DNA of 15,263 bases from a virus. Its lineage: Duplodnaviria; Heunggongvirae; Uroviricota; Caudoviricetes. Position numbers and translations under genes: made by a program. The notes beneath the pieces are model-generated. The model saw only the letters and a list, made by a program, of their open reading frames with translations. It searched no databases and had not been told where the DNA came from. Positions 1 through 15,263 of the stretch are shown piece after piece. Numbering within the stretch: the first letter of the stretch is position 1; each line of letters starts with the position of its first letter. The stretch is taken from positions 1 to 15,263 of IMG/VR virus record IMGVR_UViG_2529292726_000023. One strand, 5' to 3'.

Positions 1-403
<403 letters not shown>

Positions 404-832: not shown

Positions 833-880
833 TTTGCTGCTCCTCATCATATCGACCCTGCAAGGTCGGTTGGTTTCTCC

Positions 881-1460: not shown

Positions 1461-1498
1461 TTGCGCATTATGCAAGTGTTTTGTTGCGAGATGTGCAA
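1461..1498. promoter_or_regulatory. Putative left operator region: two operator-like 15-mers TTGCGCATTATGCAA (1461-1475) and TTGCGAGATGTGCAA (1484-1498)
   Basis: Same TTGCG-N-GCAA architecture as the 15-mer TTGCGCGTTAAGCAA at 2267-2281 in the repressor/cro intergenic region; sits immediately left of the repressor gene where OL/pL is expected in lambdoid phages. Confidence 0.4.
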
Positions 1499-1504
1499 TT
1501 TTAT

Positions 1505-1533
1505 GGGAAATGAAAAGCCACCTTTGGGTGGCT
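1505..1533 (-). terminator. Intrinsic terminator downstream of the repressor gene
   Basis: Stem AGCCACC (1516-1522) / GGTGGCT (1527-1533), loop TTTG; on the minus strand followed by TTTCATTT; lies 21 nt past the repressor stop codon. Confidence 0.55.
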
Positions 1534-1553
1534 AATTGATGAGGAGGTAAGGG

Positions 1554-2246
1554 TTAATTGTGTCGCTTAAGGGTTTGTGACTGGCTGATTAAGACCTTTC
1601 CAAAGACCATAAACCGGTGTTCATTTTCGCTGGTAATTCCCCATTCACGGTAAATCTGGTTATCAGAAATCACCAGTAGTTTGTCAGGTATCATTTGCAG
1701 TCGTTTGACATAAATTTTATCATCAAAACCAAATACATAGATACCATCTCCATCAAACTGATTGATACTGACATCAACGAAGATGAGATCTCCTGGCTCA
1801 ATGGTTGGACACATACTGTCCCCACGAACGTTGATAACTTTAATGTGATTGGCTGGTCGTCCGCCAAACATCGATACAGCATTATCAGTTCTGTATTCAA
1901 TGGCATGAATCACATCAATGACATCACCGCCCTGGATAAGGCCATTTCCCGCACTGGCACTGACATCCAGCATTTCAATACGGAATACATCCTTCACCTG
2001 CGCAACATCCTCACTAATACTGTTTTTACATACAGTATTACTTTTGAAGTCTGAGGTAAAGAGATCAGCAATATCAACACCTAAGCTCCTGGCAATATTA
2101 CTCAGGGCTTGTTCAGTGAATTGTTTCTGCTTACCTGTTTCCAGGCGCGAGATATTCGCCGCATCCACTCCTATTGCTTCAGCGAGATCGGCGATTTTCA
2201 TGTTCTTCGCCTGGCGAAGTTGTCTGACTCGATTTCCTATGTTCAT
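1554..2246 (-). CDS. CI-like prophage repressor, 230 aa: N-terminal XRE-type HTH plus C-terminal S24 (LexA-like) self-cleaving peptidase domain
   Basis: MNIGNRVRQLRQAKNMKIADLAEAIGVDAANISRLETGK HTH; C-terminal GDSMCPTIEPGDLIFVD with downstream KRLQ consistent with the Ser/Lys dyad; divergent from a Cro-like gene. Confidence 0.9.
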   Translation of the reverse strand: MNIGNRVRQLRQAKNMKIADLAEAIGVDAANISRLETGKQKQFTEQALSNIARSLGVDIADLFTSDFKSNTVCKNSISEDVAQVKDVFRIEMLDVSASAGNGLIQGGDVIDVIHAIEYRTDNAVSMFGGRPANHIKVINVRGDSMCPTIEPGDLIFVDVSINQFDGDGIYVFGFDDKIYVKRLQMIPDKLLVISDNQIYREWGITSENEHRFMVFGKVLISQSQTLKRHN

Positions 2247-2343
2247 GCGTTTATTACATTTCTTTATTGCGCGTTAAGCAAATCAACTTGCGCAAAATAT
2301 TTGCGTGAAATAACATGCTCATCACGCAATATGTGGAGGTTAT
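2247..2343. promoter_or_regulatory. Immunity switch intergenic region (OR-like operators, divergent promoters for repressor and cro)
   Basis: 97-bp gap between divergent repressor and cro genes containing TTGCGCGTTAAGCAA (2267-2281), near-palindromic CGCAAAATATTTGCG (2291-2305) and CACGCAATAT (2322-2331); GGAGG RBS before cro ATG. Confidence 0.5.
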
Positions 2344-2604
2344 ATGCAATCACCATTACGAAATGTGCGTAAGGCGCACGGGCTTACTTTGCAGCATGTT
2401 GCTGCGGGCGTTCAGGTTAATCCAGCAACGCTGAGTCGTATTGAGAGACTGGAACAAATTCCATCTATCGATCTTGCAGAGCGTCTGGCCAATTTTTTTA
2501 AGGGAGAAATCAGCGAAATGCAGATTCTCTATCCTGCACGCTTTCAATCTAGTCAAAACCGGAATGAGTTAAAACCACAGGAACAGGAGGTAAGCCGTGG
2601 GTAA
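2344..2604 (+). CDS. Cro-like HTH transcriptional regulator, 86 aa
   Basis: MQSPLRNVRKAHGLTLQHVAAGVQVNPATLSRIERLEQIPSIDLAERLANFF is a helix-turn-helix fold; position divergent from the repressor; GGAGG RBS. Confidence 0.8.
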   Translation: MQSPLRNVRKAHGLTLQHVAAGVQVNPATLSRIERLEQIPSIDLAERLANFFKGEISEMQILYPARFQSSQNRNELKPQEQEVSRG

Positions 2605-3148
2605 GCATCACTGGAAAGTGGAAAAACAACCTGAGTGGTACGTGAAAGCTATCAGAAAAACTATCGCGGCATTGCCAGGTGGTTACGCTGAAGCTGCTGA
2701 CTGGCTGGATGTAACAGAGAACGCATTATTTAACCGCCTTCGTGCCGATGGCGATCAGTTTTTTCCGTTGGGATGGGCAATGGTTTTACAGCGTGCGGCT
2801 GGTACTCACCACATTGCGGATGCTGTCGCACAGTCTGCTGGTGGGGTGTTTGTATCACTTCCTGAAATTGAGGAAGTAGAGAACGCCGATATAAACCAGC
2901 GCCTGCTGGAAGTCATCGAACAGATCGGGAGTTACTCAAAGCAGATTCGTTCGGCAATCGAAGACGGGGTAGTGGAGCCACATGAGCAGACAGCAATTAA
3001 TGATGAGTTGTATCTGTCGATTTCGAAGCTCCAGGAACATGCGGCACTGGTCTACAAAATTTTCTGCGTTCCAGAAAAGAGTGACGCCCGCGAGTGTGCA
3101 GCTCCGGGCGTCGTGGCGTTTTGTGTCTGTGGAGAAACTAACGCATGA
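2597..3148 (+). CDS. Hypothetical early regulatory protein in the CII position, 183 aa; family uncertain (possibly CII/CP76-like)
   Basis: GTG start with AGGAGG RBS 6 nt upstream, overlapping the cro stop; stop overlaps the next start (ATGA). Family assignment is from position and memory only. Confidence 0.5.
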   Translation: MGKHHWKVEKQPEWYVKAIRKTIAALPGGYAEAADWLDVTENALFNRLRADGDQFFPLGWAMVLQRAAGTHHIADAVAQSAGGVFVSLPEIEEVENADINQRLLEVIEQIGSYSKQIRSAIEDGVVEPHEQTAINDELYLSISKLQEHAALVYKIFCVPEKSDARECAAPGVVAFCVCGETNA

Positions 3149-3750
3149 ACAGTTTAACGGCAAATAACCGTTGGTCGCAACAGCTGGTGGTCCGCGTGGC
3201 TGAACACCTGTTGTTACGGCATGAATGCAGATTACCAAATCACCTGGCTGTAAGTAACCACAGAGAACTTTACCTGACTGTGGGGGGCGAGTTGTGCAGG
3301 AACTTAACCGCTGGTTTCGTGACGGAAGAGGACTTTATGTTCATGTTATTCGTTGGGAGCCAGAAACACAGCGCGTTATCTATCTTCGCAAAGACTACCC
3401 GCATGAGTGCTTTAGTCCTTTGTGGAAATTCAGGCGTGATTTTGTTGAGTGTGAAGGACCACCAGCACATTGATTCTGCCATTCCGGGACGTTACACTGT
3501 TCAGGCACCTTATAAAGCGGGTGCCGGGCGTGGAAACCCGGAATTCACCAAAGCGCACAACCGCGCTCTTGCGGTTTTTTTGTGTCATGAGCAGCATTAC
3601 GCCCAAATTATGGTGGGGCGTGCAGGGCCAACTTCGGTTGGGCCGGGTTCTTTGGTGACCGGTATTTCCACCCCTGTACGTCTCACCACCAATAAGGTCG
3701 TGGAAAGCCTTGGTGGTGAGTTATTTAAAATCACCAAAGAGGCTGCCATC
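3145..3750 (+). other. Ambiguous coding region upstream of rha, in frame with it (no stop between 3145 and 4296); possible N-terminal extension, fusion or decayed gene
   Basis: ATG at 3145 is translationally coupled (ATGA) to the upstream gene, but the Rha domain has its own RBS and start at 3751. An alternative-frame ORF at 3294-3473 has a GGGGGG RBS 6 nt before its GTG. Confidence 0.35.
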
Positions 3751-4296
3751 ATGGCTACGATCCCAACCCTCACTCAACCTGAAATTGCCATCGTTGATGG
3801 TCAGGCTGTTACTTCATCCCTGGCTGTTGCCAACTTCTTCTCCAAACGTCATGACGATGTACTGAAAAAGATCCGCACGCTTGAATGCTCCGCATCATTC
3901 ACTGCCCGCAATTTTTCGGTGAGTGATTACACCGATTGCACAGGCCGCAAACTACCTTGCTATCAAATAACCCGCGACGGCTTTGCGTTTCTTGCTATGG
4001 GTTTCACGGGTAAACGTGCTGCCCAGTTCAAAGAGGCATACATCAATGCCTTTAACCAGATGGAGAAACAGCTTTCAAGGCCCGCTGTACCGAGCGACGT
4101 TGCACATAACGCCAGCGTTCTCTGTTCCTACATTTCATCAATTCATCAGGTCTGGCTGCAGCAGCTTTATCCTATGTTGGCAAAAGCCGAATCTCCGCTG
4201 GCTGTTAGCTTATATGACTATATTAATGATGCTTCGGCGCTGGCCTGCCTCATAAATTTGTCGCTGAACCCTTCAGAGGTAAGGGGGCGCAAATGA
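3751..4296 (+). CDS. Rha family phage regulatory protein, 181 aa
   Basis: MATIPTLTQPEIAIVDGQAVTSSLAVANFFSKRHDDVLKKIRTL matches the Rha domain N-terminal signature; AAAGAGG RBS 8 nt upstream of ATG 3751. May instead be the C-terminal part of a 383-aa ORF starting at 3145. Confidence 0.8.
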   Translation: MATIPTLTQPEIAIVDGQAVTSSLAVANFFSKRHDDVLKKIRTLECSASFTARNFSVSDYTDCTGRKLPCYQITRDGFAFLAMGFTGKRAAQFKEAYINAFNQMEKQLSRPAVPSDVAHNASVLCSYISSIHQVWLQQLYPMLAKAESPLAVSLYDYINDASALACLINLSLNPSEVRGRK

Positions 4297-4517
4297 TCCG
4301 GAATATTTTCAAACGTTTTACCAATCAGACTTTCCGTTGTCCTCGTCCGGGTCAGTGGTACACCACGCCTGCAGGGCATGTTCTACGTGTTAGCCTGGTT
4401 GACCGTGAATGTCAGAAGGTGGTTTGTGAACCGCTGGGCCGTAATTACCGCGTCAGTATGCCGCTTATAGCCTTTCGCTCCAGAAAAAACATGAAGCATC
4501 TCGGAGGTGCAGCATGA
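4293..4517 (+). CDS. Hypothetical small protein, 74 aa
   Basis: ATGA overlap with the upstream stop and with the downstream start (translational coupling on both sides); GGTAAGGGGG RBS. No family recognised. Confidence 0.5.
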   Translation: MIRNIFKRFTNQTFRCPRPGQWYTTPAGHVLRVSLVDRECQKVVCEPLGRNYRVSMPLIAFRSRKNMKHLGGAA

Positions 4518-5332
4518 GTATGGAGCTGATGGTTAAAGCGATGAAAATTCGAGTGGGTAATCCATTGCGAAAACTGGTTCTGATCAAGCTGGCTGATAAT
4601 GCCAGCGATCAGGGTGAGTGCTGGCCCAGCTACCAGCATATTGCTGACCAGTGCGAGATTAGCAAACGTTCTGTGATGAATCATATTGCGGCCCTTTGTG
4701 AGTCCGGGCTGGTAAAAAAAGTCACCCGGAAAGGTGAAAAAGGTAACTCAAGTAATATCTATCTCCTTCATCTGGATGGTGCAGGAGATTCACTAGGGGG
4801 TAGTGCAAATAATTCACTATCTGGTGCAGCAAATTCACCAGGTAGTGCAGGAGTTGCACCAGGGGGTAGTGCAGGAGATTCACCCAGAACCAGTCACTCT
4901 TTTGAACCAGTCAAAGAACCAGTCAATGAACCAATAGCTGTTGGTGCATCAGTTGATGAGTCCGTGCGAGTTCGTTCAAACCGACCGGAATATTCTCCGG
5001 AGTTTGAGCAGGCATGGCTGGCATATCCCAAACGTGCTGGTGGCAATTCAAAATCTGCAGCCTTCAAAGCCTGGAAAGCCCGTTTGAATGAGGGGGTAAA
5101 CCCCGAAACCATGCTGGAAGGTGTGAAACGCTATGCGGGCTGGGTATCTGCAATGGGTAACAGCGGCACACAATTTGTGAAACAGGCTGTCACGTTCTTT
5201 GGTCCGGATCGTCATTTCGAAGAATCCTGGGAAGTTCCTGCGGTATCTGCAGCCAGACGTGAGGACCCGTACTTCAAATCCAGTTACGACAACGTGGACT
5301 ACAGCCAGATCCCGGCAGGATTCAGGGGGTGA
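4514..5332 (+). CDS. O-like replication initiator candidate, 272 aa: N-terminal winged-HTH DNA-binding domain, Gly/Ser/Ala-rich linker, conserved C-terminal domain
   Basis: N-terminus LRKLVLIKLADNASDQGECWPSYQHIADQCEISKRSVMNHIAALCESGLVKK resembles phage replication-protein HTH domains; the linker coincides with iteron-like DNA repeats, as in lambda O/ori. Confidence 0.6.
   Translation: MSMELMVKAMKIRVGNPLRKLVLIKLADNASDQGECWPSYQHIADQCEISKRSVMNHIAALCESGLVKKVTRKGEKGNSSNIYLLHLDGAGDSLGGSANNSLSGAANSPGSAGVAPGGSAGDSPRTSHSFEPVKEPVNEPIAVGASVDESVRVRSNRPEYSPEFEQAWLAYPKRAGGNSKSAAFKAWKARLNEGVNPETMLEGVKRYAGWVSAMGNSGTQFVKQAVTFFGPDRHFEESWEVPAVSAARREDPYFKSSYDNVDYSQIPAGFRG
4778..4935. repeat. Iteron-like direct repeats inside the replication gene (candidate origin of replication)
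   Basis: Repeated units GGTAGTGCA (x3), GTGCAGGAGATTCAC (x2), ATTCAC (x4), then AACCAGTCA (x3) within about 160 bp. Confidence 0.5.
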
Positions 5333-5334
5333 TC

Positions 5335-5823
5335 ATGAGTCTTTTGAATGACGTTCAGAAATTCATTGAAGCCCATCCGGGGTGTACTTCCGGAGACATT
5401 GCGGATGCTTTTGCAGGTTACTCACGGCAGCGCGTACTGCAGTCAGCAAGCAAGTTACGTCAGAGTGGGCGTGTGGCTCACCGTTGTGAAGGGGATACAC
5501 GCAGACATTTCCCGCGCCTGACTGAGAGAGCGCAGGAGCCGGAACCACAACCAGTTCGTGAAACCAGACCTGTGCGCAATTTCTATGTCGGCACTAACGA
5601 TCCCCGGGGGATTTTGTGCCTGACCCGCCAGGCTGAAGAACTGGAGTCAAGAGGCTTATACCGTCGTGCTGCAACCGTGTGGATGGCGGCATTCCGTGAA
5701 AGCCACTCCCAGCCAGAACGAAACAATTTTCTGGCGCGTCGTGAGCGGTGCTTACGGAAAAGCAGCAAGCGCGCTGCATCGGGTGAAGAGTGGTATCTGT
5801 CAGGGAATTACGTGGGGGCTTAA
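5335..5823 (+). CDS. PerC-like transcriptional regulator domain protein, about 162 aa
   Basis: C-terminal QAEELESRGLYRRAATVWMAAF...LARRERCL resembles the PerC/Pch motif; ATG 5335 has an AGGGGG RBS. The GTG at 5329 in the ORF track is less likely. Confidence 0.5.
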   Translation: MSLLNDVQKFIEAHPGCTSGDIADAFAGYSRQRVLQSASKLRQSGRVAHRCEGDTRRHFPRLTERAQEPEPQPVRETRPVRNFYVGTNDPRGILCLTRQAEELESRGLYRRAATVWMAAFRESHSQPERNNFLARRERCLRKSSKRAASGEEWYLSGNYVGA

Positions 5824-6476
5824 TGAGTAATAAATATTGCCAGGCGCTGGTGGAACTGCGGAACAAACCAGCCCATGAACTGAAGGACGTGGGCGATCAG
5901 TGGCGCACGCCGGACAACATTTTCTGGGGAATTAACACCCTGTTTGGCCCGTTTGTTCTGGATCTGTTCACTGACGGTGATAACGCCAAATGTGCTGCGT
6001 ATTACACGGCGGAAGACAACGCGCTGGCGCATGACTGGTCAGAACGTCTTGCGGAGCTTAAAGGTGCTGCCTTTGGTAATCCCCCATACAGCCGCGCCAG
6101 TCAGCATGAGGGGCAATACATCACCGGCATGCGTTACATCATGAAGCATGCCAGTGCCATGCGTGATAAGGGCGGGCGCTATGTTTTCCTGATCAAAGCT
6201 GCCACCAGCGAAGTTTGGTGGCCGGAAGATGCAGACCATATTGCTTTTATTCGCGGGCGTATTGGTTTTGAACTGCCTGCCTGGTTTATCCCGAAGGATG
6301 AGAAGCAGGTGCCGACAGGAGCGTTCTTCGCTGGTGCTATTGCTGTTTTCGACAAGACCTGGAAGGGACCGGCAATCAGCTACATCGGGCGCGATGAACT
6401 TGAGGCATGTGGTGAGGCCTTTCTGGCGCAGGTTCGCCAGCAGGCGGAAAAACTGGTCAGGGAGATGGCGGCATGA
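5823..6476 (+). CDS. Phage-type DNA N6-adenine methyltransferase, 217 aa
   Basis: MSNKYCQALVELRNKPAHELKDVGDQWRTPDNIFWGI... with WRTP and NPPY (FGNPPYSRA) motifs typical of the phage Dam family; start overlaps the upstream stop (TAATG). Confidence 0.85.
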   Translation: MSNKYCQALVELRNKPAHELKDVGDQWRTPDNIFWGINTLFGPFVLDLFTDGDNAKCAAYYTAEDNALAHDWSERLAELKGAAFGNPPYSRASQHEGQYITGMRYIMKHASAMRDKGGRYVFLIKAATSEVWWPEDADHIAFIRGRIGFELPAWFIPKDEKQVPTGAFFAGAIAVFDKTWKGPAISYIGRDELEACGEAFLAQVRQQAEKLVREMAA

Positions 6477-6799
6477 CGACGTTAACTCAATGCCAGCAGC
6501 AGGGGCTGGATATGCTGATTTCTTACCAGAAAGAACGTGGCTTCCCGCCAACCAATCAGGAGGTGGCAACCATGCTGGGATACCGTTCAGTGAATGCAGC
6601 GGTGGAGCATCTTCGCGCACTGGAGAAAAAAGGCGTCATCACGATAAAGCGTGGCGTGGCCCGGGGGATCACGCTTCATACCGCAGTGAAGGACGACGAC
6701 AGCGAAGCGGTCGGGATTATCCGCTCACTGCTTGCCGGTGAGGAAAACGCAAGGCTGCGTGCAACCCACTGGTTACATGAGAGGGGCCTGAAAGCATGA
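6473..6799 (+). CDS. LexA N-terminal DNA-binding-domain-like protein, 108 aa, with no peptidase domain
   Basis: LTQCQQQGLDMLISYQKERGFPPTNQEVATMLGYRSVNAAVEHLRALEKKGVITIKRGVARGITL parallels the LexA winged-helix domain; protein ends about 40 aa later without an S24 domain. Confidence 0.75.
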   Translation: MTTLTQCQQQGLDMLISYQKERGFPPTNQEVATMLGYRSVNAAVEHLRALEKKGVITIKRGVARGITLHTAVKDDDSEAVGIIRSLLAGEENARLRATHWLHERGLKA

Positions 6800-7185
6800 A
6801 GCTGATCCTGCCTTTTCCGCCCAGCGTGAACACGTACTGGCGACACCCCAACAAAGGGGCGTTTGCAGGTAAGAGCCTGATAAGCGCGGCGGGGCGCAAA
6901 TTCCAGAGCGCGGCGTGCGCAGCAATAGTTGAGCAGTTACGTCGTCTACCAAAACCAACGTCGGCACCTGCTTCAGTGGAGATCGTGTTGTTTCCTCCGG
7001 ATAACCGGATCCGCGATCTGGACAACTATAACAAGGCGCTGTTTGACGCGTTGACCCACGCGGGTGTGTGGGAAGACGACAGACAGGTGAAAAGAATGCT
7101 GGTGGAGTGGGGACCGGTTATCCCGAAAGGGAAGGTCGAGATCACCATCAGTAAGTACGAGAAAACGGCGGGTGCAGCCGCCTGA
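6796..7185 (+). CDS. rusA: RusA Holliday-junction resolvase, 129 aa
   Basis: MKLILPFPPSVNTYWRH...RDLDNYNKALFDALTHAGVWEDDRQV matches RusA conserved motifs; typical nin-region position. Confidence 0.9.
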   Translation: MKLILPFPPSVNTYWRHPNKGAFAGKSLISAAGRKFQSAACAAIVEQLRRLPKPTSAPASVEIVLFPPDNRIRDLDNYNKALFDALTHAGVWEDDRQVKRMLVEWGPVIPKGKVEITISKYEKTAGAAA

Positions 7186-7204
7186 TCAAGAGGAGAAACG
7201 AAGT

Positions 7205-8002
7205 ATGAATAATCTGATGGTCATTGATGGTATTGAAGTTCGTCGTGATGCTTATGGTCGTTACAGCCTGAACGATCTGCACAGGGCTGCCGGTTCTCTG
7301 GATAAGCATAAGCCTGCATTCTGGCTCCGCAATGAGCAAACTGAACGTTTAATAAGCGAGTTGCAGATTTGCAACTCGGTCAATATAGAGCCAGTTAACG
7401 TTATTCGTGGCGGAAATAACCAGGGGACGTATGTCTGCAAAGAACTGGTGTATGCCTATGCAATGTGGATAAGCCCGTCATTCCATCTGAAGGTGATCCG
7501 TACTTTCGACATGGTAACCAGCGCACCGGAAAAATTATCCGGACAGGCTGCTGACAAGATGCAGGCTGGTGTGATTCTGCTGGACTTTATGCGCCGGGAA
7601 TTAAACCTGTCTAACTCTTCAGTGCTTGGGGCCTGTCAGAAACTCCAGGAGGCTGTTGGCTTACCGAATCTGGCACCGCGCTATGCCATTGATGCTCCTG
7701 CTGACGCGCCTGATGGCTCAAGCCGCCCCACGCTGTCACTGAGTGCACTGCTGAAGCAGTATGGTATCCGCCTGACAGCTAATCAGGCATATCACCAGAT
7801 GGCGAAGCTGGGGATCGTTGAACAACGTGAACGATACAGCCGCACTGCGATTAACAACATCAAAAAATTCTGGTCGCTGACGGCGAAAGGCTGCATGTTC
7901 GGCAAGAACATCACCAGTCCCGCAAATCCGCGCGAGACGCAGCCGCATTTCTTCGAATCCCGGTTCCCTGAGCTGTTAAAGCTGCTCGATACCGTTCATT
8001 GA
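7205..8002 (+). CDS. KilA-N domain protein, 265 aa
   Basis: N-terminus MNNLMVIDGIEVRRDAYGRYSLNDLHRAAG...KPAFWLRNEQTERLISEL...GGNNQGTYVCKELVYAYAMWISPSFHLKVIRTFD is a KilA-N fold; GAGGAGAAA RBS before ATG 7205. Confidence 0.8.
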   Translation: MNNLMVIDGIEVRRDAYGRYSLNDLHRAAGSLDKHKPAFWLRNEQTERLISELQICNSVNIEPVNVIRGGNNQGTYVCKELVYAYAMWISPSFHLKVIRTFDMVTSAPEKLSGQAADKMQAGVILLDFMRRELNLSNSSVLGACQKLQEAVGLPNLAPRYAIDAPADAPDGSSRPTLSLSALLKQYGIRLTANQAYHQMAKLGIVEQRERYSRTAINNIKKFWSLTAKGCMFGKNITSPANPRETQPHFFESRFPELLKLLDTVH

Positions 8003-8003
8003 G

Positions 8004-8999
8004 GTGACCGTGAGAGCGCTACTGACCCCTGAAATTGCCCCGCGTATGGGGATCGTATTGTTCAGGCCAGGTTCAGAGCTGATGCCCCTGTTTATGCAGG
8101 GGCGTGTCCTGCTGGAGCCTGAGCCGGAACGTTATTCATCTTTCGCCAGTGGTGCCGTTCCGGCTGCATCACAACCGCTGGCGGATGATCCTGCCGTTTG
8201 GGCCGTGTTCCGCAATGAGGCAGTGATTCGTCGTGCTGGTGGAGTGGAATGTCTTGAACGCTGGTTACTTCGTGAAAAAGGTTGCCAGTGGCCTCATTCC
8301 GACTGGCACAGCGAGAACATGACCACAATGCGACACACGCCGGGCGCAATCCGTCTGTGCTGGCACTGCGATAACCAGCTGCGCGATCAGTTCACGGAAC
8401 GGCTGGAATCAATGGCAACGGATAACTGTACCCGCTGGGTGTTGTCTGTTGTGCGTCGGGATCTCGGTTTTGATGACAGTCACGTTGTGACAATGCCGGA
8501 ACTGTGCTGGTGGCTGATTCGTAATGACCTGGCGGATGCCTTACCGGAAAGTGCAGCCCGTAAGGCACTGAGATTACCGAAGCCTGTTGTGCCGTCTGTC
8601 ACCCGGGAAAGTGACCTTGTGCCTTCGGTTCCTGCCACCAGCATCATCCAGGATAAAGCGAAAAAGGTGCTGGCGCTGAAAGTGGATCCGGAGTCGCCGG
8701 AGTCTTTTATGTTACGCCCAAAACGTCGCCGCTGGGTTAATGAAAAGTACACGCGCTGGGTTAAGACACAGCCGTGTGCATGTTGTGGAAAGCCTGCTGA
8801 TGATCCCCACCACCTGATAGGTCACGGTCAGGGAGGAATGGGAACAAAAGCGCATGACCTTTTTGTGTTGCCTTTGTGCAGAAAGCATCACGACGAGCTG
8901 CATGCGGATACCGTGGCATTTGAAGAGAAGTATGGCTCCCAGCTGGAGCTGATATTTCGTTTTATCGATCGTGCGCTGGCAATTGGCGTGCTGGCCTGA
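8004..8999 (+). CDS. DUF968 protein (YdfU-like), about 330 aa, with C-terminal HNH-like Cys/His motif
   Basis: C-terminal [43 protein letters not shown]; sits just upstream of Q as DUF968 genes do in Qin-like prophages. True start may be GTG 8010 (GAGG RBS). Confidence 0.75.
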
Positions 9000-9016
9000 T
9001 TTTGTGGAGAAAGTTG

Positions 9017-9382
9017 ATGCGTGATATTCAAATGGTTCTTGAACGTTGGGGGGCATGGGTGGCAAATAATCACGAGGATGTCACCTGGTCGTCTATTGCT
9101 GCAGGATTTAAAGGACTAATCCCTTCAAAAGTAAAATCCCGCCCGCAATGTTGTGACGATGACGCGATGATCATTTGTGGGTGCATGGCTCGCCTGAAAA
9201 AGAACAACAGCGATTTGCACGATTTATTAGTGGATTATTATGTAGGTGGTATGACGTTTATGGCGCTTGCCCGTAAACATGGGCGTTCTGATTGCTGGGT
9301 TGGGCGTTTATTGCAAAAGGCTGAAGGTGTAGTTGATGGCATGTTAATGATGTTAGAAATTGAGCTAGAGATGGATCGTTAG
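9017..9382 (+). CDS. Late-gene antiterminator Q (QuuD-like family), 121 aa
   Basis: [76 protein letters not shown] matches the Q antiterminator family of DLP12/phage-82 type as I remember it; GGAG RBS. Confidence 0.85.
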
Positions 9383-9423
9383 AAGACCTCTTATTGAGGG
9401 GGTAATTGAATCAGTTTAATGTG

Positions 9424-9458
9424 TGGGGAGTCGATTTATTCTCCCCATTTATTTAATT
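9424..9458 (+). terminator. Hairpin plus A/T-rich tract downstream of Q
   Basis: Stem GGGGAG (9424-9429) / CTCCCC (9440-9445), 10-nt loop, followed by ATTTATTTAATTAATTT; a possible promoter (TTGAGG 9393-9398, 17 nt, TAATGT 9416-9421) lies just upstream. Confidence 0.35.
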
Positions 9459-9465
9459 AATTTAC

Positions 9466-9912
9466 TTAAGGTTTTAATTCATCAAGACGTTGTTGGATAG
9501 TGTTTTTGCTTGCGTTGTCTGTTATAGCCATTTGTTGTACTTGCCCCATTGCCATTTGAGTTTCCATCCACATATCGGCCCACACTTTTGTATCGTTATT
9601 AACTTGAGCGATAGTAAATCTGACTTTTGATACCGGGGTTGTTGAATAGGCATTTCCGATTAACATTTGTCCAAAAACAGCAGAGCCGCCTTCCAGTTCT
9701 TTACCACATATAACACTGCTGTTATCCGCGTTGTAAATTATCAACCCTCTACTATTGCAGTAATTCACAAGGGCATCTTTGACTTTATCTTTTGTCGTAT
9801 TTTGATAAACCCCCTCAGGTTTTCCTGATTGAGTTTTCTTTATCAATGGTACGGAAGAAGTACAACCTGAAATGATAGTTGCGCTAAGTAATAGTACAGT
9901 CATTTTATTCAT
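9466..9912 (-). CDS. Lipoprotein of unknown function, 148 aa, AT-rich moron between Q and the tRNA array
   Basis: N-terminus MNKMTVLLLSATIISGCTSS is a signal peptide with lipobox (ISGC); opposite strand to flanking late genes; local GC visibly lower than the neighbours. Confidence 0.7.
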   Translation of the reverse strand: MNKMTVLLLSATIISGCTSSVPLIKKTQSGKPEGVYQNTTKDKVKDALVNYCNSRGLIIYNADNSSVICGKELEGGSAVFGQMLIGNAYSTTPVSKVRFTIAQVNNDTKVWADMWMETQMAMGQVQQMAITDNASKNTIQQRLDELKP

Positions 9913-10041
9913 GTTTCTTATCCATTGTTAAGGGTATACCCACACAATTATTTTTATTGGAGATGAATAATCAACCGTTTACAATCGTAAAAAATCAAAT
10001 ATGCTGTTAAGAGTGGTTACTTCGCCACACAACTTAACCCC

Positions 10042-10061
10042 GCCGCTGAGCGGTTTTTTTT
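10042..10061 (+). terminator. Intrinsic terminator (short GC stem plus T8)
   Basis: GCCGC-TGA-GCGG hairpin at 10042-10053 followed by TTTTTTTT at 10054-10061. Confidence 0.55.
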
Positions 10062-10142
10062 GTACCTGTAAACTTGGTGCAGTACAGTAAACACGCTGGT
10101 GGACAAGTGAAAAACAGCATTTAATCAGGCCTTCTGAAGATA

Positions 10143-10171
10143 TTGCAGTATTAATTCTGTAACGTTATTAT
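10143..10171 (+). promoter_or_regulatory. Candidate sigma70 promoter for the tRNA array
   Basis: -35 TTGCAG (10143-10148), 17-nt spacer, -10 TATTAT (10166-10171), about 9 nt before the first tRNA. Confidence 0.45.
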
Positions 10172-10180
10172 TCTGTGCGC

Positions 10181-10256
10181 GGCCCTTTAGCTCAGTGGTG
10201 AGAGCGAGCGACTCATAATCGCCAGGTCGCTGGTTCAAATCCAGCAAGGGCCACCA
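10181..10256 (+). tRNA. tRNA with CAU anticodon, most like tRNA-Ile2 (lysidine type; a plain scan would call it Met)
   Basis: 76-nt cloverleaf GGCCCTTTAGCTCAGTGGTGAGAGCG...CTCATAA...GGTTCAAATCCAGCAAGGGCCACCA; anticodon CAT at 10214-10216; encoded CCA; resembles enterobacterial ileX/ileZ. Confidence 0.85.
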
Positions 10257-10257
10257 A

Positions 10258-10334
10258 CTGCCACTAGCTCATCAGGAAAGAGCGTCAACCCTTTAAGTTG
10301 AGAGTGCGAGGTTCGAGTCCCCGGTGGCGGTCCA
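10258..10334 (+). tRNA. tRNA-like gene with noncanonical anticodon loop CCTTTAA (position 33 is C); anticodon reads UUU (Lys) by standard numbering; identity uncertain, possibly a pseudo-tRNA
   Basis: Acceptor CTGCCAC/GTGGCGG (one G-U pair), D-stem GCTC/GAGC, anticodon stem TCAAC/GTTGA, T-loop TTCGAGT with one A-C mismatch in the T-stem, encoded CCA. Confidence 0.5.
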
Positions 10335-10336
10335 GT

Positions 10337-10412
<76 letters not shown>

Positions 10413-10415
10413 TGT

Positions 10416-10490
<75 letters not shown>

Positions 10491-10496
10491 GTTAGA

Positions 10497-10542
10497 GTCT
10501 TTCAGTCTGCGATGATGGGAAATCCCGGAGTGACTGAAAGAC
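10497..10542. repeat. Perfect 11-bp inverted repeat GTCTTTCAGTC / GACTGAAAGAC with 24-nt spacer
   Basis: Direct reading; immediately downstream of the tRNA array. Confidence 0.7.
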
Positions 10543-10550
10543 GTTTAAGT

Positions 10551-10620
10551 TATGAATGATCGCTTTTTTTGCAAAATTGCTGTGCAGAAATACTAACCTT
10601 CGGGCAGGCGATCATTCATA
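10551..10620. repeat. Perfect 13-bp inverted repeat TATGAATGATCGC / GCGATCATTCATA with 44-nt spacer
   Basis: Direct reading; spacer contains a T7 run and a possible promoter (TTGCAA ... TACTAA). Confidence 0.7.
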
Positions 10621-10696
10621 AGCACTCTGCTTTTATTCCGATTAACTGTGGGTGGTTTGTTGGATAGAGTGCTTCCCTTACTGTATATATCGTTTC

Positions 10697-10720
10697 GCCC
10701 GCTTTTGCGGGTTTTTCTTT
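10697..10720 (+). terminator. Strong intrinsic terminator just upstream of the lysis cassette (candidate tR'-type terminator read through by Q-modified polymerase)
   Basis: GCCCGC-TTTT-GCGGG hairpin (10697-10711) followed by TTTTTCTTTT. Confidence 0.65.
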
Positions 10721-10781
10721 TCAAATCCCTTTCATTTCTCAGTGTAAAACTACGCCATCCGTTATTTGCGGAGGTGAGGCT

Positions 10782-10997
10782 ATGAAATCCATGGACAAAA
10801 TTTCAACGGGCATTGCCTACGGCACCTCCGCAGGCAGTGCTGGCTACTGGTTTTTACAGTGGCTTGATCAGGTCAGTCCGTCACAGTGGGCTGCGATTGG
10901 TGTACTGGGGAGTCTGGTTCTGGGCTTCCTGACTTATCTGACAAATCTGTACTTCAAAATAAGAGAAGATAAGCGTAAGGCTGCACGGGGAGAGTAA
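10782..10997 (+). CDS. Phage-21-type class II holin (pinholin) with dual-start motif: 71-aa antiholin from ATG 10782 and 68-aa holin from ATG 10791
   Basis: [71 protein letters not shown] is near-identical in pattern to phage 21 S21 / DLP12 EssD as I remember them; GGAGGTGAGG RBS. Confidence 0.9.
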
Positions 10998-11001
10998 TTC
11001 A

Positions 11002-11346
11002 ATGACACAAAAATATGAACTGATTGTGAAAGGGATCCGCAATTTTGAGAATAAAGTTACGGTAACTTTAGCGTTACGGGACAAAAAACGCTTTGACGGT
11101 GAAATTTTAGACCTGGACATCTCGCTGGACCGTGTTGAAGGTGCCGCGCTGGAGTTTTATGAGGCAGCAGCCAGAAGGAGCATCAGACAGGTCTTCCTGG
11201 ATGTTGCTGCCGGGTTATGTGAAGGGGATGAGCAGTCACCGGAAAAGCGCCCCATAATTTTAGAGGCGCAGGGTGTGTGGATAACCTACAAAGGAAAACT
11301 GCCGGGAAGAATTACTGGTTCACTGAAGACTCCGCCGAAATGGTAA
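11002..11346 (+). CDS. Hypothetical protein, 114 aa, between holin and endolysin (same position as Qin YdfR); function unknown
   Basis: ATG 11002 with GGGGAGAG RBS, 4 nt after the holin stop; product MTQKYELIVKGIRNFENKVTVTLALRDKKRFDGEILDLD...; 3' end overlaps the convergent gene by 35 bp. Confidence 0.6.
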   Translation: MTQKYELIVKGIRNFENKVTVTLALRDKKRFDGEILDLDISLDRVEGAALEFYEAAARRSIRQVFLDVAAGLCEGDEQSPEKRPIILEAQGVWITYKGKLPGRITGSLKTPPKW

Positions 11347-11584
11347 TTTCACCAGCATATTTTTCTTCCAGTAATACCGCCAGCCACTTGAAAGAATTTT
11401 GTTGTTGCTGGGACCATTTGGGGTTGAGTGATTCAAGCTGGAGCGATGCCAGTGTTGGTTGCATTTGTTCCTTGGGAATTGAGAATGCCAGATATGAAAA
11501 TGCGACAGTAAGGGCATTTACATCATCCCGAAGCTTGGAAATGCAGTCGAGCAACTCCTGTAGAGAAATGGTGCTATTGTCCAT
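11312..11584 (-). CDS. Hypothetical small protein, 90 aa, antisense to the lysis operon; one hydrophobic segment; function unknown
   Basis: ATG at 11584 on the minus strand with GAGAGGA RBS 6 nt upstream; product MDNSTISLQELLDCISKLRDDVNALTVAFSYLAFSIPKEQ...; candidate promoter TTGAAT (11624-11629) / TACAAT (11599-11604). Confidence 0.55.
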   Translation of the reverse strand: MDNSTISLQELLDCISKLRDDVNALTVAFSYLAFSIPKEQMQPTLASLQLESLNPKWSQQQQNSFKWLAVLLEEKYAGEITISAESSVNQ

Positions 11585-11689
11585 AAACAATCCTCTCTAT
11601 TGTATTTAACTATTCCTTGCCTGATTCAACAGGCCGGGACAGATAAACATATCCAGGGTTCAGAAACCGATAAATCCTGATAAATATCC

Positions 11690-12223
11690 ATGAGCGCAAA
11701 AATCAAATACGGCCTGTCAGCTGCTGTTCTGGCGCTGATTGCTGCAGGCGCGTCTGCTCCTCAAATACTTGACCAGTTTCTGGATGAAAAAGAGGGTAAC
11801 CACACTACGGCATACCGCGATGGTTCCGGTATATGGACCATCTGTCGTGGTGCCACAATGGTGGATGGTAAGCCCGTCATACCGGGAATGAAGCTGTCGA
11901 AGGAAAAATGCGACCAGGTTAACGCTATTGAACGTGATAAGGCGCTGGCATGGGTGGAGCGCAATATTAAAGTACCACTGACCGAACCACAGAAAGCGGG
12001 TATAGCGTCATTTTGTCCCTATAACATTGGCCCCGGTAAGTGTTTCCCGTCGACGTTTTATAAGCGGCTGAATGCCGGTGATCGTAAGAGTGCATACGAG
12101 GCGATTCGCTGGTGGATAAAAGATGGTGGGCGCGATTGCCGCATACGTTCAAATAACTGCTATGGACAGGTTATTCGTCGTGACCAGGAAAGCGCATTAG
12201 CCTGTTGGGGGATAGATCAGTGA
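11690..12223 (+). CDS. SAR endolysin (T4-lysozyme-like muramidase with N-terminal signal-anchor-release domain), 177 aa
   Basis: N-terminal [18 protein letters not shown] hydrophobic SAR segment, then E...D...T lysozyme motif region ([23 protein letters not shown]); follows a pinholin as in phage 21. Confidence 0.9.
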
Positions 12224-12687
12224 GCAGAGTCGCCGCGATTATTTATGCTCTGGTTATCTGCATCATCGTCTGCCTGTCGTGGGCGGTCAATCATTGCCGT
12301 GATAACGCCATCGCCTACAAAGAACAGCGTGATAAAAAAGTCAGTGAGCTGAAGCAGGCGACCGCCACCATTACTGACATGCAGCAACGCCAGCGTGCTG
12401 CTGATGTACTCGATGCTAAATACACGAAGGAGTTGGCTGATGCGAAAGCTGAAAATGATGCTCTTCGGCGCAAGCTTGATAATGGTGGTCGGGTGCTCGT
12501 CAAAGGAAAATGCTCTGTGCCATCCTCAGCCGAAACCTCCAGCGCCTCCGGCATGGGCAATGATGCCACCGTCGAACTCTCTCCAGTTGCTGGACGAAAC
12601 GTTCTCGGTATCCGGGACGGAATCATCAGAGACCAGACAGCACTGAGAACGCTTCAGGAATATATCAGGACGCAATGCCTTCGATGA
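12220..12687 (+). CDS. Rz inner-membrane spanin, about 155 aa
   Basis: GTG 12220 overlaps the endolysin stop (GTGA); N-terminal [22 protein letters not shown] then charged coiled-coil region; contains Rz1 in the +1 frame. Confidence 0.85.
12440..12646 (+). CDS. Rz1 outer-membrane lipoprotein spanin, 68 aa, embedded in Rz
   Basis: [39 protein letters not shown]: signal peptide, lipobox VVGC, proline-rich; AAGGAG RBS 7 nt upstream. Confidence 0.85.
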
Positions 12688-12861
12688 TAGCGATAATTTT
12701 ACTCATCATCCTTCACATCTGGCTCTGTAGACAGGGTGGTGATCACTTCTGGAGTGAATCCAGATTAAACATCTCATTGCTGATGCTTGAAGTTGAGCAT
12801 CTGGCGCGCGGTAAGGGGCTGCGTTGAAATAAGAGCCAGTCATTACAAATACCAGGATTTA

Positions 12862-12887
12862 GCCTCGTATTCGCGGGGCTTTTTATT
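12862..12887 (+). terminator. Intrinsic terminator candidate downstream of the lysis genes
   Basis: GCCTCG-TATTCG-CGGGGC hairpin (one G-U pair) followed by TTTTTATT. Confidence 0.5.
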
Positions 12888-12944
12888 GCCATTACAAAAG
12901 CCACTCCCTACAGAGTGGCTTTGATAATGGCTTATACCCTACAC

Positions 12945-12970
12945 GGGATAACTTAACTGATATCCCTTTT
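12945..12970 (+). terminator. Second hairpin plus T-run
   Basis: GGGATA-N10-TATCCC followed by TTTT. Confidence 0.4.
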
Positions 12971-13312
12971 AACGGATAAAGGTATTCAAGCCTGACACAT
13001 CATGCGCTGTATCGTCGCCGTATTCCCGTATTAACAGAGACCGTAGCCCGACGGGGAACTCCTTCTGCGAGAGTGTGCGGGAATAATCAAAAACGATGCA
13101 CACCGGGTTTTTACCGCGTTTATGGTTCGCGGGTTTGTCCCTCATGCTCGCCAGTCCTGTGCGGGGGTGGAAGAAACAGGATACTCACACAGATTCTTGT
13201 GGGCACGATGCTATTCCTTTCTGGATTATCCCGATGCCATTCATGCAAGGCGCTGTATCAGACGTTCGTCATGGCTGTCAGGCTGACGGGTCCTCCCGGT
13301 GGGGTGGCCTGC

Positions 13313-13333
13313 CACGGGGCGGGAGCGTCGCGG
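13313..13333. other. Candidate cohesive-end site (cosN-like) upstream of the terminase genes
   Basis: ACGGGGCGGGAGCGTCGCGG resembles the lambda cos region ACGGGGCGGCGACCTCGCGGG as I recall it, followed by an AT-rich stretch before the small terminase gene. Confidence 0.45.
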
Positions 13334-13501
13334 AAAAAGGCTAGTTTTTGCATTTTTATCGGCCACCATCATCTTTGCATCTTATTGATTATTAATGTTA
13401 TTTGTTTTTTGTATGTCGAATTGAGTGTTTTTTGTTCGACATCGAACGCGTTTTCTTAAAGTTGTTCGCACGATGCATGTTTAAAGCTCTCCGGAGGAAA
13501 T

Positions 13502-13993
13502 ATGGATCATGAGTTGAAAAACCTGGTGCTGAATATTAATCAACTGGCGGCTTTATCTGGTCTGCACCGCCAGACTGTCGTGGCAAGACTGAAAAACATT
13601 CGTCCCGCTGGTGGACATGACAAACTCAAGCTATACCGGTTGACCGATATTCTGACTGAATTTATGGGGTTACCACCGCCGGTTGCTGAGGGCGAAATGG
13701 ATCCACATGAACGCAAAGCCTGGTATCAGTCTGAACGTGAGCGTCTTAAGTTCGAACAGGAAACGGCACAACTCATTCCGGCCAGTGATGTCAGACGGGA
13801 GTTTGCCATCTGGGCAAAAGCGGTCGTGCAGGTGCTGGAGACATTACCGGATATTCTGGAACGTGACTGCGGCCTGCAGCCTGTCGCTGTGAGCCGTGTT
13901 CAGTCCATTATTGATGATCTGCGCGATCAGATAGCCCTGCGGGTGACCGAAGCAGGTGCGGATGATGAGGAGGAATTACAGCAGGAGGAGTAA
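13502..13993 (+). CDS. Terminase small subunit (Nu1-like), 163 aa
   Basis: N-terminal HTH-like LNINQLAALSGLHRQTVVARLKNI, acidic C-terminus; directly precedes the large terminase with TAATG overlap; GGAGG RBS. Confidence 0.8.
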   Translation: MDHELKNLVLNINQLAALSGLHRQTVVARLKNIRPAGGHDKLKLYRLTDILTEFMGLPPPVAEGEMDPHERKAWYQSERERLKFEQETAQLIPASDVRREFAIWAKAVVQVLETLPDILERDCGLQPVAVSRVQSIIDDLRDQIALRVTEAGADDEEELQQEE

Positions 13994-14859
13994 TGCTGAA
14001 TCAGGAAACCGCAAAGGCAGCACGAACCGATTCAGGTTATATCCTTCGCGCACCGAGACGAATGCGGGTTGCTGATGCCGTTGCTCAGTATATGCGAGTG
14101 CCCATGGGGGCCGGGAACTCAGTCCCGTGGGATCCGCTGGTGGCACCGTATGTTCTTGAGCCGATGAACTGCCTGGCCTCGCGTGAATACGACGCAGTGA
14201 TATTTGTTGGTCCGGCACGAACCGGCAAGACTATCGGCCTGATTGACGGCTGGGTGATTTACAACGTGATTTGCGATCCTGCGGATATGCTGATCATTCA
14301 GATGACGGAGGAAAAAGCCCGCGAACACTCCAAAAAACGACTTGCCAGAACGTTTCGCGTCAGCCCGGAAGTGGTCAGTCGCCTGAGTCCGAACAAAAAT
14401 GACAACAACGTTTATGACAGAACATTCCTTGCTGGCAACTACCTGAAAATCGGCTGGCCGTCAGTCAATATCATGTCCTCATCAGATTATAAATGCGTGG
14501 CGCTGACGGATTATGACCGTTTTCCGGAAGATATTGATGGCGAGGGGGATGCCTTCTCTCTTGCCTCAAAACGTACCACCACATTTATGTCCAGTGGTAT
14601 GACGCTGGTGGAGAGTTCCCCCGGCAGGGATGTGAAGGATGTGAAATGGCGACGGACTTCACCGCATGAGGCTCCACCAACCACGGGGATACTGTCGCTC
14701 TATAACCGTGGCGATCGCCGTCGCTGGTACTGGCCCTGTCCACACTGTGGTGAGTATTTTCAGCCCTGCGGCGATGTGGTTGCTGGTTTCCGTGATATTG
14801 CCGATCCCGTGCTGGCAAGTGAGGCGGCTTATATTCAGTGTCCTTCCTGTTCATATTAG
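13993..14859 (+). pseudogene. Terminase large subunit (lambda gpA-like), truncated after about 288 codons at the IS21-family insertion
   Basis: Walker A-like FVGPARTGKT; ...DYDRFPEDIDGEGDAFSLASKRTT...YWPCPHCGEYFQ parallels lambda gpA; frame stops at 14857-14859, where the IS terminus begins. Full-length gpA is about 640 aa. Confidence 0.8.
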
Positions 14860-15263
14860 ACGTCAACTAGTTTTGCCGACTCGCGCCAACTATACTGGCC
14901 GCACCCTTCAGTGCGACATCAAGTCGCGCTTGTTACTGCCTTCGCTGTCTTTTTCCTGTAGCTTTCACCTTTCAGTTCGAACATATATCCGTGATGGATC
15001 AGCCGGTCTGCCGCCGCCACCGCCATAGTCTCATCCACGAAGATGCTGCCCCACATGCTGAACGGATGGTTACTGGTTATCACCAGGCTCCCACGTTCAT
15101 AGCGATGCGCTATTAACTCGAACAGTACTCCCGTTTCGGCGCTGTCGCGTTTGACATAGCCAAGATCATCCACCACTATCACCCGGTAGCGATCCAGTTT
15201 CAGTAGCAGCTCATTCAGTTTCAACTGCGCTCTGGCTTTACGTAGTTCCTGCAACAACTCTCC
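14848..15263 (-). mobile_element. IS21-family insertion sequence, partial copy (IstB side), continuing beyond the window end
   Basis: Terminus TGTTCATATTAGACGTCAACTAG at 14848 shares the TTAGACG.CAAC motif with the other IS end; IstB C-terminus encoded at 14919-15263. Confidence 0.75.
14919..15263 (-). CDS. istB: IS21-family IstB helper ATPase, C-terminal about 114 aa only (gene starts beyond the window)
   Basis: ...YRVIVVDDLGYVKRDSAETGVLFELIAHRYERGSLVITSNHPFSMWGSIFVDETMAVAAADRLIHHGYMFELKGESYRKK has the Walker B (VVDDLGY) and C-terminal features of IstB/DnaC-like ATPases. Confidence 0.85.
   Translation of the reverse strand, partial: GELLQELRKARAQLKLNELLLKLDRYRVIVVDDLGYVKRDSAETGVLFELIAHRYERGSLVITSNHPFSMWGSIFVDETMAVAAADRLIHHGYMFELKGESYRKKTAKAVTSAT

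Follow-up and report, generated by a model that had tools for sequence, protein, structure and literature searches.

A prophage tRNA gene with a lysine anticodon and a cytidine at position 33 descends from the argN/argO family of phage tRNA-Arg genes

What is a tRNA gene that carries the anticodon UUU of tRNA-Lys together with a cytidine, rather than the near-universal uridine, at position 33? This question is raised by the virus record IMGVR_UViG_2529292726_000023 in IMG/VR, of which positions 1 to 15,263 (hereafter, the window; 15,263 nucleotides in full length) were analysed. The window is an Escherichia coli lambdoid prophage: bases 10100-10560 match strain 510016 at 100% identity and the complete genome of Escherichia phage PhiR47_1, from ECOR13, at 99.8%. 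The gene in question is the second of four tRNA genes that lie head-to-tail in the order Ile2-CAU, slot 2, Thr-UGU, Gly-UCC, with inter-gene gaps of 1-3 nt (1 nt from Ile to slot 2 and 2 nt from slot 2 to Thr), and we refer to it as slot 2. A prediction previously made from the letters of the window had pointed to its unusual anticodon loop and had offered three readings of it: a decaying pseudo-tRNA, an unusual Lys-type tRNA, or a tRNA with altered decoding (frameshift or suppressor-like). Here we find that slot 2 is a real tRNA gene whose C33 is fixed in a widespread prophage lineage, that it descends from a phage tRNA-Arg, and that its pattern of variation is consistent with a Lys-type tRNA under weak constraint.

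Slot 2 is a real tRNA gene with C33 and the anticodon UUU

The features that the original prediction had listed, namely four folding arms, an encoded CCA, the loop CCTTTAA with C33 and a T-stem A-C mismatch, are all present. The acceptor stem has seven pairs (including U2·G71, as read from the sequence), the D stem has four, the anticodon stem has five Watson-Crick pairs, and the T stem contains a single mismatch, A51·C63 (A at 10309, C at 10321). The 7-nt anticodon loop occupies 10290-10296, with C33 at 10291 and the anticodon TTT at 10292-10294. TTCGAGT forms the T loop, U73 serves as discriminator, and the CCA is gene-encoded (layout in Table 1). Among the residues of the loops and tertiary core, U8, A14, G18G19 and TTCGAGT are present, and U33 is changed to C. 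ARAGORN called a tRNA-Lys(ttt) at exactly the same coordinates. Covariance-model scoring, which the original prediction had proposed as a check, gave 40.4 bits (E = 1.1e-5) with the Rfam model RF00005, above the gathering score of 29 and below the 65-74 bits of the three adjoining tRNAs (Table 1). The same model scored C33-UUU alleles at 40.4-44.4 bits and canonical Arg members of the family, introduced below, at 51-58 bits.

When 16 alleles of this family were compared, 97.6% of cells were paired in the cloverleaf, compared with at most 53% in slid controls, and compensatory changes were found on both sides of five pairs (4:69, 7:66, 27:43, 30:40 and 51:63). Thermodynamic folding did not discriminate: for slot 2 z was -0.8 and the minimum free energy structure was not the cloverleaf, whose energy was level with that minimum, and the same was true of the neighbouring real tRNAs. 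Because slot 2 lies head-to-tail with three canonical tRNAs and has a cloverleaf backed by covariation, we conclude that it is a real tRNA gene with a true tRNA scaffold, far beyond a chance match.

Slot 2 descends from a phage tRNA-Arg of the argN/argO family

The body of slot 2 shows descent from a phage tRNA-Arg of the argN/argO family that now carries a lysine anticodon. Slot 2 aligns with argN/argO tRNA-Arg and not with tRNA-Lys. It is homologous over its full length to argN of phage 933W (loop CUUCGAA, anticodon UCG), and the full-length identity to argN and argO is 78-88%; shared elements include the acceptor CCGCCAY/RTGGCGG, U73, the D loop ATCRGGAxA and the T arm. Slot 2 departs from argN and argO in carrying UUU in place of UCG or UCU, C33 in place of U33, and the A51·C63 mismatch. 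Its position is also that of the family: in 933W-type ileZ-argN-argO clusters, as in the window, the slot follows an ileZ-like tRNA, downstream of Q and a homologous pT and upstream of the late and lysis genes, although it is followed by argO in the 933W-type cluster and by host-like Thr and Gly tRNAs in the window. Slot 2 is thus placed in the argN/argO family by homology and by its position in the Q-to-lysis cluster, whereas C35 of the arginine anticodons is replaced in it by U35; it is a family member by descent without being a tRNA-Arg itself.

The discriminator of the E. coli host tRNA-Lys is A73, whereas that of slot 2 is U73. Of the features that define a tRNA-Lys, slot 2 has UUU and U36-A37-A38, but neither A73 nor descent from a bacterial tRNA-Lys. 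The host tRNA-Lys(UUU) shares UUU, C32 and U36-A37-A38 with slot 2, but its body is non-homologous, it has U33 where slot 2 has C33, and it reads U39-C40-A41 where slot 2 reads G39-U40-U41 (PMC12409363).

The nearest relatives of slot 2 are tRNA-Arg(UCU) alleles: the Nissle type (TCAGC CTTCTAA GTTGA) and an allele (locus L114) that sits in the same Ile-X-Thr-Gly cluster, where slot 2 is Arg(UCU) with the loop TTTCTAA. Relative to these, the loop of the window allele carries U33C and C35U. In IMG/VR no intermediate allele with C33 and UCU was found, and the only relative with U33 and UUU is of the L021 type, a Lys(UUU) allele with the loop CUUUUAU, Watson-Crick pairs in all stems and a compensatory U4-A69 pair, found in about 20 E. 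coli genomes. The original module therefore read four NNA codons, AUA, AGA, ACA and GGA. All four are low-usage codons in E. coli, and the original module fits the usual rare-codon explanation, whereas the shift of slot 2 to UUU does not.

The anticodon change should also have altered aminoacylation. In E. coli, the identity elements for arginyl-tRNA synthetase (ArgRS) are C35 and A20, of which C35 is dominant, and those for lysyl-tRNA synthetase (LysRS) are U35 with U34, U36 and A73. Slot 2 has U at positions 35 and 73 and retains A20; judged from these residues, C35U should have abolished Arg identity and created a Lys identity that is weakened by U73.

C33 is fixed in one Escherichia/Shigella prophage lineage

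A BLAST search of the 77-nt slot 2 against 5,426 complete E. coli genomes found the family in 2,121 of them, with roughly 4,000 copies in all. The C33-UUU lineage (at least 90% identity) accounts for 788 E. coli records, or approximately 14% of complete genomes, and the remaining E. coli family matches are annotated as tRNA-Arg. When IMG/VR was scanned with a pattern that did not constrain the anticodon loop, 121 matches were returned, 118 of which have the loop CCTTTAA; within the C33 lineage only loop position 32 varies, being U in two or three copies and A in one. In a scan of one genome per species, which gave six matches, the C33 allele was confined to E. coli and Shigella flexneri; matches in other genera had different, mostly degenerate anticodon arms. 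A metagenome scan with the pattern TCAACNCTTTAAGTTGA was too unspecific to be informative, as 119 of 120 loci were chance matches.

C33 is therefore not sporadic but fixed in one widespread Escherichia/Shigella prophage lineage. The original prediction had asked whether C33 is conserved among homologous prophage tRNAs and had held that a sporadic, unconserved mutation of an ordinary tRNA would speak against it; fixation in a widespread lineage answers that objection. At the same time, the restriction of C33 to E. coli and Shigella flexneri indicates that the lineage is young and that its conservation reflects recent common descent, which does not prove selection. The absence of any of the 20 segregating sites (in 77 positions) from positions 33-38 is not significant.

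Slot 2 varies more than its neighbours and many sister alleles are broken

Diversity was compared across 60 loci that have in common the stretch from the module through the holin gene. Nucleotide diversity (pi) in slot 2 was 0.0186 (9 segregating sites in 77), compared with 0.0030 in tRNA-Ile (4/76), 0.0067 in tRNA-Thr (8/76) and 0.0063 in tRNA-Gly (4/75), that is, three to six times that of the neighbouring tRNAs. It was about equal to that of linked intergenic DNA (three stretches, pi 0.009-0.022; 32/291), and pi at holin third-codon positions was 0.041 (23/71).

Outright damage is common among sister alleles. The combination U8C + C4U + C11U was present in 27 of 109 clusters, and other alleles carry G18A, have lost 1 nt from the D stem (PPompW type), have a deleted anticodon arm or are fused with tRNA-Gly; lesioned sister alleles gave no Rfam detection at E <= 1 and had no PGAP annotation. 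Within the C33 lineage, approximately half of the copies in E. coli bear further lesions. In an evenly spaced E. coli sample, whose rows are not independent, 10 of 23 C33-lineage rows were annotated as tRNA, compared with 32 of 36 Arg-allele rows; a Fisher test on the annotated/unannotated tally of 11/12 (C33) versus 32/4 (Arg) gave p = 0.0009, again with rows that are not independent. In other genera, members of the family conserve the acceptor and T arms and have degenerate anticodon arms, with either a 6-nt loop or a mispaired anticodon stem (Table 1); the plasticity of the anticodon arm in this family is unusual.

Prophage pseudo-tRNAs such as 'tRNA-Pseudo-TTG' of Yersinia phage YeP1 and the PPompW-type D-stem deletion belong to the family and slot of slot 2 and have lost canonical features, whereas the cloverleaf of the window allele is intact and its Rfam score exceeds the threshold. 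A broken cloverleaf, indels or a sub-detection score, the marks of a pseudo-tRNA, are found in sister alleles and not in the window allele itself. Taken together, these patterns suggest that constraint on slot 2 is relaxed but not absent, and the residual constraint may be on decoding or on shape, or may reflect mere youth, all of which are compatible with the data.

A proposed reading of slot 2 as an anticodon-shifted tRNA drifting toward pseudogene status

We consider the best explanation, with a probability of roughly 0.5, to be that slot 2 is a member of the argN/argO family that became Lys-type by an anticodon shift, is under weak constraint and is drifting to pseudogene status. The 'decaying pseudo-tRNA' and 'unusual Lys-type' readings of the original prediction are both viable, in that between them they span this explanation and its main rival. 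Starting from the homology, ancestry, distribution and pattern of variation described above, we infer expression, charging and decoding from the sequence. C35U turned UCU into UUU and removed the main ArgRS determinant, and U33C took away the U-turn uridine. The pair is fixed in one Escherichia/Shigella lineage and travels in a compact four-tRNA module with its own putative promoter. Slot 2 is probably co-transcribed with the neighbours that lie 1-2 nt away and released by the ordinary tRNA processing enzymes. Any charging would be by LysRS via U34-U35-U36, and would be poor because the discriminator is U73; the charged tRNA would read AAA and AAG at somewhat lower efficiency. As these codons are already served by host tRNA-Lys genes, constraint on slot 2 would be relaxed, leaving it a marginal or relic tRNA, which in many sub-lineages is already too decayed to be recognised.

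A number of observations weigh against this explanation. To begin with, neither sequence oddity need be a defect. C33 loses the U-turn uridine, yet this is not disqualifying: Saccharomyces cerevisiae tRNA-Leu(GAG) has, like slot 2, a natural C33 in a 7-nt loop, and C33U changes little there (PMC13492127), although that tRNA, unlike slot 2, is eukaryotic, of another isoacceptor type, encoded by a single-copy chromosomal gene and of shown expression and function. Moreover, the bacterial enzyme that forms t6A makes no base-specific contact with U33 and needs 36-UAA-38 (PMC13276492), a determinant that slot 2 retains. The A·C T-stem mismatch is also found in the window tRNA-Thr, a 100% match to host thrU, and A·C at 51:63 occurs in an annotated tRNA-Arg of an Stx2c phage; the original prediction had missed these parallels, as well as the tRNA-Arg descent of slot 2.

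The variation data, too, can be read in the other direction. The number of segregating sites in slot 2 (9/77) does not differ significantly from that of its neighbours (16/227; p = 0.23), and it is lower than that of holin third-codon positions (p = 0.003). Changes in the stems of slot 2 mostly preserve pairing, with seven C>U changes opposite G versus two G>A changes; one of these C>U changes repairs the A·C mismatch, and one of the two G>A changes is compensated. The stem changes in the neighbouring tRNAs, in contrast, comprise 9 that preserve and 16 that disrupt pairing (p = 0.05 for the contrast with slot 2). The commonest allele (S1) and the window allele both keep U8, A14, G18G19, TTCGAGT, U36-A37-A38 and CCA, and a slot 2 allele identical to that of the window is present in the complete genome of phage PhiR47_1. 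Finally, about 14% of complete E. coli genomes carry the allele, more than would be expected of a defective gene, but a successful module could have spread it by hitch-hiking.

A spare tRNA-Lys selected against defence nucleases is a less probable alternative

The strongest rival, which we regard as clearly less probable than the explanation above, is that slot 2 has been selected as a spare tRNA-Lys(UUU), which would sustain the translation of AAA and AAG when defence nucleases destroy host tRNA-Lys, its Arg-derived body and possibly C33 making it a poor nuclease substrate. E. coli tRNA-Lys(UUU) is indeed targeted repeatedly by nucleases. P2-OLD cleaves paired CNG motifs in the anticodon stem, with tRNA-ThrU as its prime target and tRNA-Lys(UUU) as another (PMC12445682), and the cleavage site of PrrC is 3' of U33 (PMC2610378). 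Phage-encoded tRNAs that resist such nucleases are known: T5 tRNA-Lys(UUU) acts against PARIS AriB, and the tRNA-Thr(UGU) of lambdoid phage 21 and of other coliphages against P2-OLD, with protection reported for that of phage 21 (PMC12445682). Like these, slot 2 is phage-encoded, carries the anticodon of a targeted host tRNA, and departs from that tRNA at positions of the anticodon arm that are known to be cleaved or recognised. Its stem, UCAAC/GUUGA, reads G39-U40-U41 in place of the AriB site U39-C40|A41 (PMC12409363) and contains no CNG (PMC12445682). The known resistant tRNAs differ in that they keep U33 and are divergent cognate tRNAs, whereas slot 2 would be a recruited tRNA-Arg.

Several features of the module fit the idea of a spare tRNA-Lys. 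The module also has a Thr(UGU), the anticodon UUU has arisen in it repeatedly (in the C33 lineage, in the L021-type Lys(UUU) and by G35U in a Thr body), and no IMG/VR family allele, including both UUU derivatives, has the exact host-like loop CUUUUAA. That the stems are preserved, that the allele is present in a complete phage genome and that yeast tRNA-Leu(GAG) tolerates C33 (PMC13492127) point in the same direction. Set against these are the indifference of gamma-toxin to U33C (PMC2275089) and the identity of the window Thr(UGU) to host thrU, which should make it sensitive to both OLD and AriB. In addition, U73 is not the discriminator of LysRS substrates, the Thr-body UUU is a single haplotype in six genomes and so is weak evidence of recurrent selection, about half of the E. 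coli C33-lineage copies are further damaged, and the diversity of slot 2 equals that of linked intergenic DNA. A more specific and slightly more doubtful version is that lambdoid phages recruited a tRNA-Arg(UCU) as a spare tRNA-Lys(UUU) whose foreign stem evades the Toprim nucleases P2-OLD and PARIS AriB and whose C33 alters the PrrC junction. If this were true, the odd loop would be an adaptation in a phage-versus-phage tRNA arms race against rival P2/P4 elements, in about one-seventh of E. coli genomes.

Two observations on the tRNA-Thr of related modules stand beside this argument. In tRNA-Thr alleles T16 and T17 (L023, L070), positions 42-43 are changed, from TCAGT to TCATC or TCACC, which shortens the anticodon stem; phage tRNA-Thr with a similarly shortened stem is reported to resist P2-OLD (PMC12445682). 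The Thr-body UUU haplotype is the module tRNA-Thr with G35U and A26G, keeps A73 and is called tRNA-Lys by PGAP. It was seen in L051, L067, L080, L084 and L110 and in six E. coli genomes (for example, NZ_CP025842.1, 1040162-1040237), and it is linked to a slot 2 allele with U8C, C63U and U73G.

Other explanations are improbable

It is unlikely that slot 2 is a processing spacer, dead in translation but shaped like a tRNA in a module that is matured as a unit. With the genes only 1-3 nt apart, cuts by RNase P at slot 2 and Thr would set the ends of the neighbouring tRNAs; stem pairing is kept while U8C, G18A, C33 and position 32 change; and degeneration in other genera affects the anticodon arm but spares the acceptor and T arms. 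However, clusters with a deleted D stem, a deleted anticodon arm or a fusion of slot 2 to Gly persist, from which it follows that an intact fold is not needed, and exonucleases are able to trim long 3' trailers.

We give very little weight to a further proposal, in which ArgRS still charges slot 2 via A20 and the Arg body and delivers arginine at lysine codons, with C33 attenuating a toxic missense tRNA. The Arg-family body and A20 are retained, and both UUU derivatives have a second change at a near-invariant loop position (U33C here and A38U in L021), but C35, the dominant determinant for E. coli ArgRS, is lost.

Least probable of all, and rejected here, is the altered decoding of the original prediction, whether as a +1 frameshifter or as a suppressor in a shifted register (for example, UUA versus UAA), which has on its side the oddity of C33 and the 8-nt loop CUUUUUAU of a relative from the canonical-Lys lineage (L266), whereas a 7-nt loop and five Watson-Crick stem pairs are seen in the window allele and in each of the 118 C33 copies, the anticodon UUU is a sense triplet, no allele of the C33 lineage has an 8-nt loop or a stop anticodon, and L266 lies in a decayed cluster of a different lineage.

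The L266 copy (3117-3194, E. coli O2:H6 PG20180057) is of the canonical-Lys(UUU) type with one extra U in its loop, and its cluster also has a damaged tRNA-Ile; the 8-nt loop could be either slippage decay or a potential +1 frameshifter.

Implications

Clusters of tRNA genes situated between Q and the lysis or stx genes are a familiar feature of prophages and tend to be interpreted as a supply of rare-codon tRNAs, an explanation from which slot 2 departs. An AGA-reading tRNA-Arg has here become a form with UUU and C33 that has spread to about 14% of complete E. coli genomes and is routinely annotated as tRNA-Lys, as it already is in GenBank and RefSeq records. In the literature searched on ileZ/argN/argO and on tRNA-Lys of lambdoid and Stx prophages, we found no paper on the Arg ancestry or the C33 of slot 2. 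If slot 2 is functional, it would represent a natural bacterial switch of tRNA identity by anticodon mutation and a working elongator tRNA with C33, and it would add temperate lambdoid phages to the large virulent phages in which tRNAs were recently discovered to act in counter-defence. If slot 2 is instead a relic, hundreds of E. coli 'tRNA-Lys' annotations would be questionable, and the locus would offer a natural series of tRNA gene decay. Slot 2 is of value chiefly because it makes it possible to test whether recruited tRNAs serve temperate lambdoid phages in counter-defence.

The tRNA module and its surroundings

The four tRNA genes lie between a gene for a Q antiterminator and one for a P21-type holin, the latter followed by lysozyme and Rz (Table 1).

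Table 1. Coordinates of slot 2, of the features around it and of family members in other genera. Positions without a locus number are those of the window; bits are scores with the Rfam tRNA model.
Feature	Position	Strand	Details
Q antiterminator	9002-9382		Pfam Phage_antitermQ; on one side of the tRNA module
148-aa open reading frame	9466-9912	-	Between Q and the tRNA module; matches only phrog_3152 (function unknown)
Terminator-like hairpin and T run	10042-10064	+	Consensus scan: GCCGCTGAGCGGT then TTTTTTTTGTA
Putative tRNA promoter	10143-10171	+	-35 TTGCAG (10143-10148), 17-nt spacer, -10 TATTAT (10166-10171)
tRNA with anticodon CAU, ileZ/ileX-like	10181-10256	+	72.5 bits; PGAP tRNA-Ile, i.e. 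an AUA reader after lysidine modification
tRNA gene, slot 2	10258-10334	+	77 nt; argN/argO family; loop CCUUUAA; U73; encoded CCA; 40.4 bits; layout CTGCCAC TA GCTC ATCAGGAAA GAGC G TCAAC CCTTTAA GTTGA GAGTG CGAGG TTCGAGT CCCCG GTGGCGG T CCA
tRNA-Thr(UGU)	10337-10412	+	73.8 bits; 100% identity to host thrU
tRNA-Gly(UCC)	10416-10490	+	64.9 bits; 100% identity to host glyT
Perfect 11-bp inverted repeat	10497-10542	+	GTCTTTCAGTC ... GACTGAAAGAC; just past the last tRNA; read from the sequence
P21-type holin	10782-10997		On the other side of the module; then lysozyme, Rz
Salmonella diarizonae copy	L138 2762-2835		6-nt loop CGGGAT
Citrobacter amalonaticus copy	L143 2-75		6-nt loop CAGGAT
Edwardsiella hoshinae copy	L142 1226-1302		Mispaired anticodon stem, 'UUG'
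Yersinia phage YeP1 copy, 'tRNA-Pseudo-TTG'	L265 602-679		Mispaired anticodon stem, 'UUG'

Upstream of the module, in the Q-dependent late leader region, lies the terminator-like hairpin; at the corresponding position phage 933W carries the annotation 'possible rho-independent terminator upstream of tRNA genes'. The promoter-like element is aligned to the 'pT; putative tRNA promoter' of the 933W annotation, and its -10 hexamer is followed by the GC-rich stretch TCTGTGCGC; a consensus promoter scan did not flag 10143-10171, the -35 of which matches at only 3 of 6 positions. Homology among about 140 related loci mostly begins at 10143, nearly exactly at the putative -35 hexamer, and upstream of this point the loci differ, with different Q types, DNA methyltransferases and other genes. 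The module is therefore a mosaic cassette whose left edge is a sharp recombination joint at 10143. Past the last tRNA, the inverted repeat recurs after the clusters of L047, L114, L131, L139 and L141, and its region has a low pi of 0.009 across the 60 linked loci; the repeat may serve the module in processing or termination.

The prophage Thr(UGU) and Gly(UCC) genes are separated by a 3-nt spacer, without the tyrU that parts thrU and glyT on the chromosome. Their identity to the host genes suggests either capture of those genes or continuing gene conversion.

No nuclease or defence gene was found beside the cluster: the 148-aa open reading frame has no Pfam or PADLOC match, and the other open reading frames nearby are ordinary lambdoid late and lysis genes. 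PhiR47_1 carries different genes where the window has this frame, which looks like a moron-type insert.

The Rfam scan of the window gave no match to the small RNA STnc100, which was found (131-158 bits) after the tRNAs in Ile-Arg-Arg clusters of the Stx type and related ones (L013 664-864, L014 641-849 and L016 642-841). Adjacent Rfam matches to isrK (67 bits, 3505-3581) and C4 antisense RNA (83.6 bits, 3606-3693), both on the + strand of the window, fall within an open reading frame at 3145-4296 that is annotated as a Rha-family regulatory protein, and 3505-3693 has the look of an antirepressor control region of the P1/P7 or Gifsy kind that lies inside, or overlaps, the called coding sequence.

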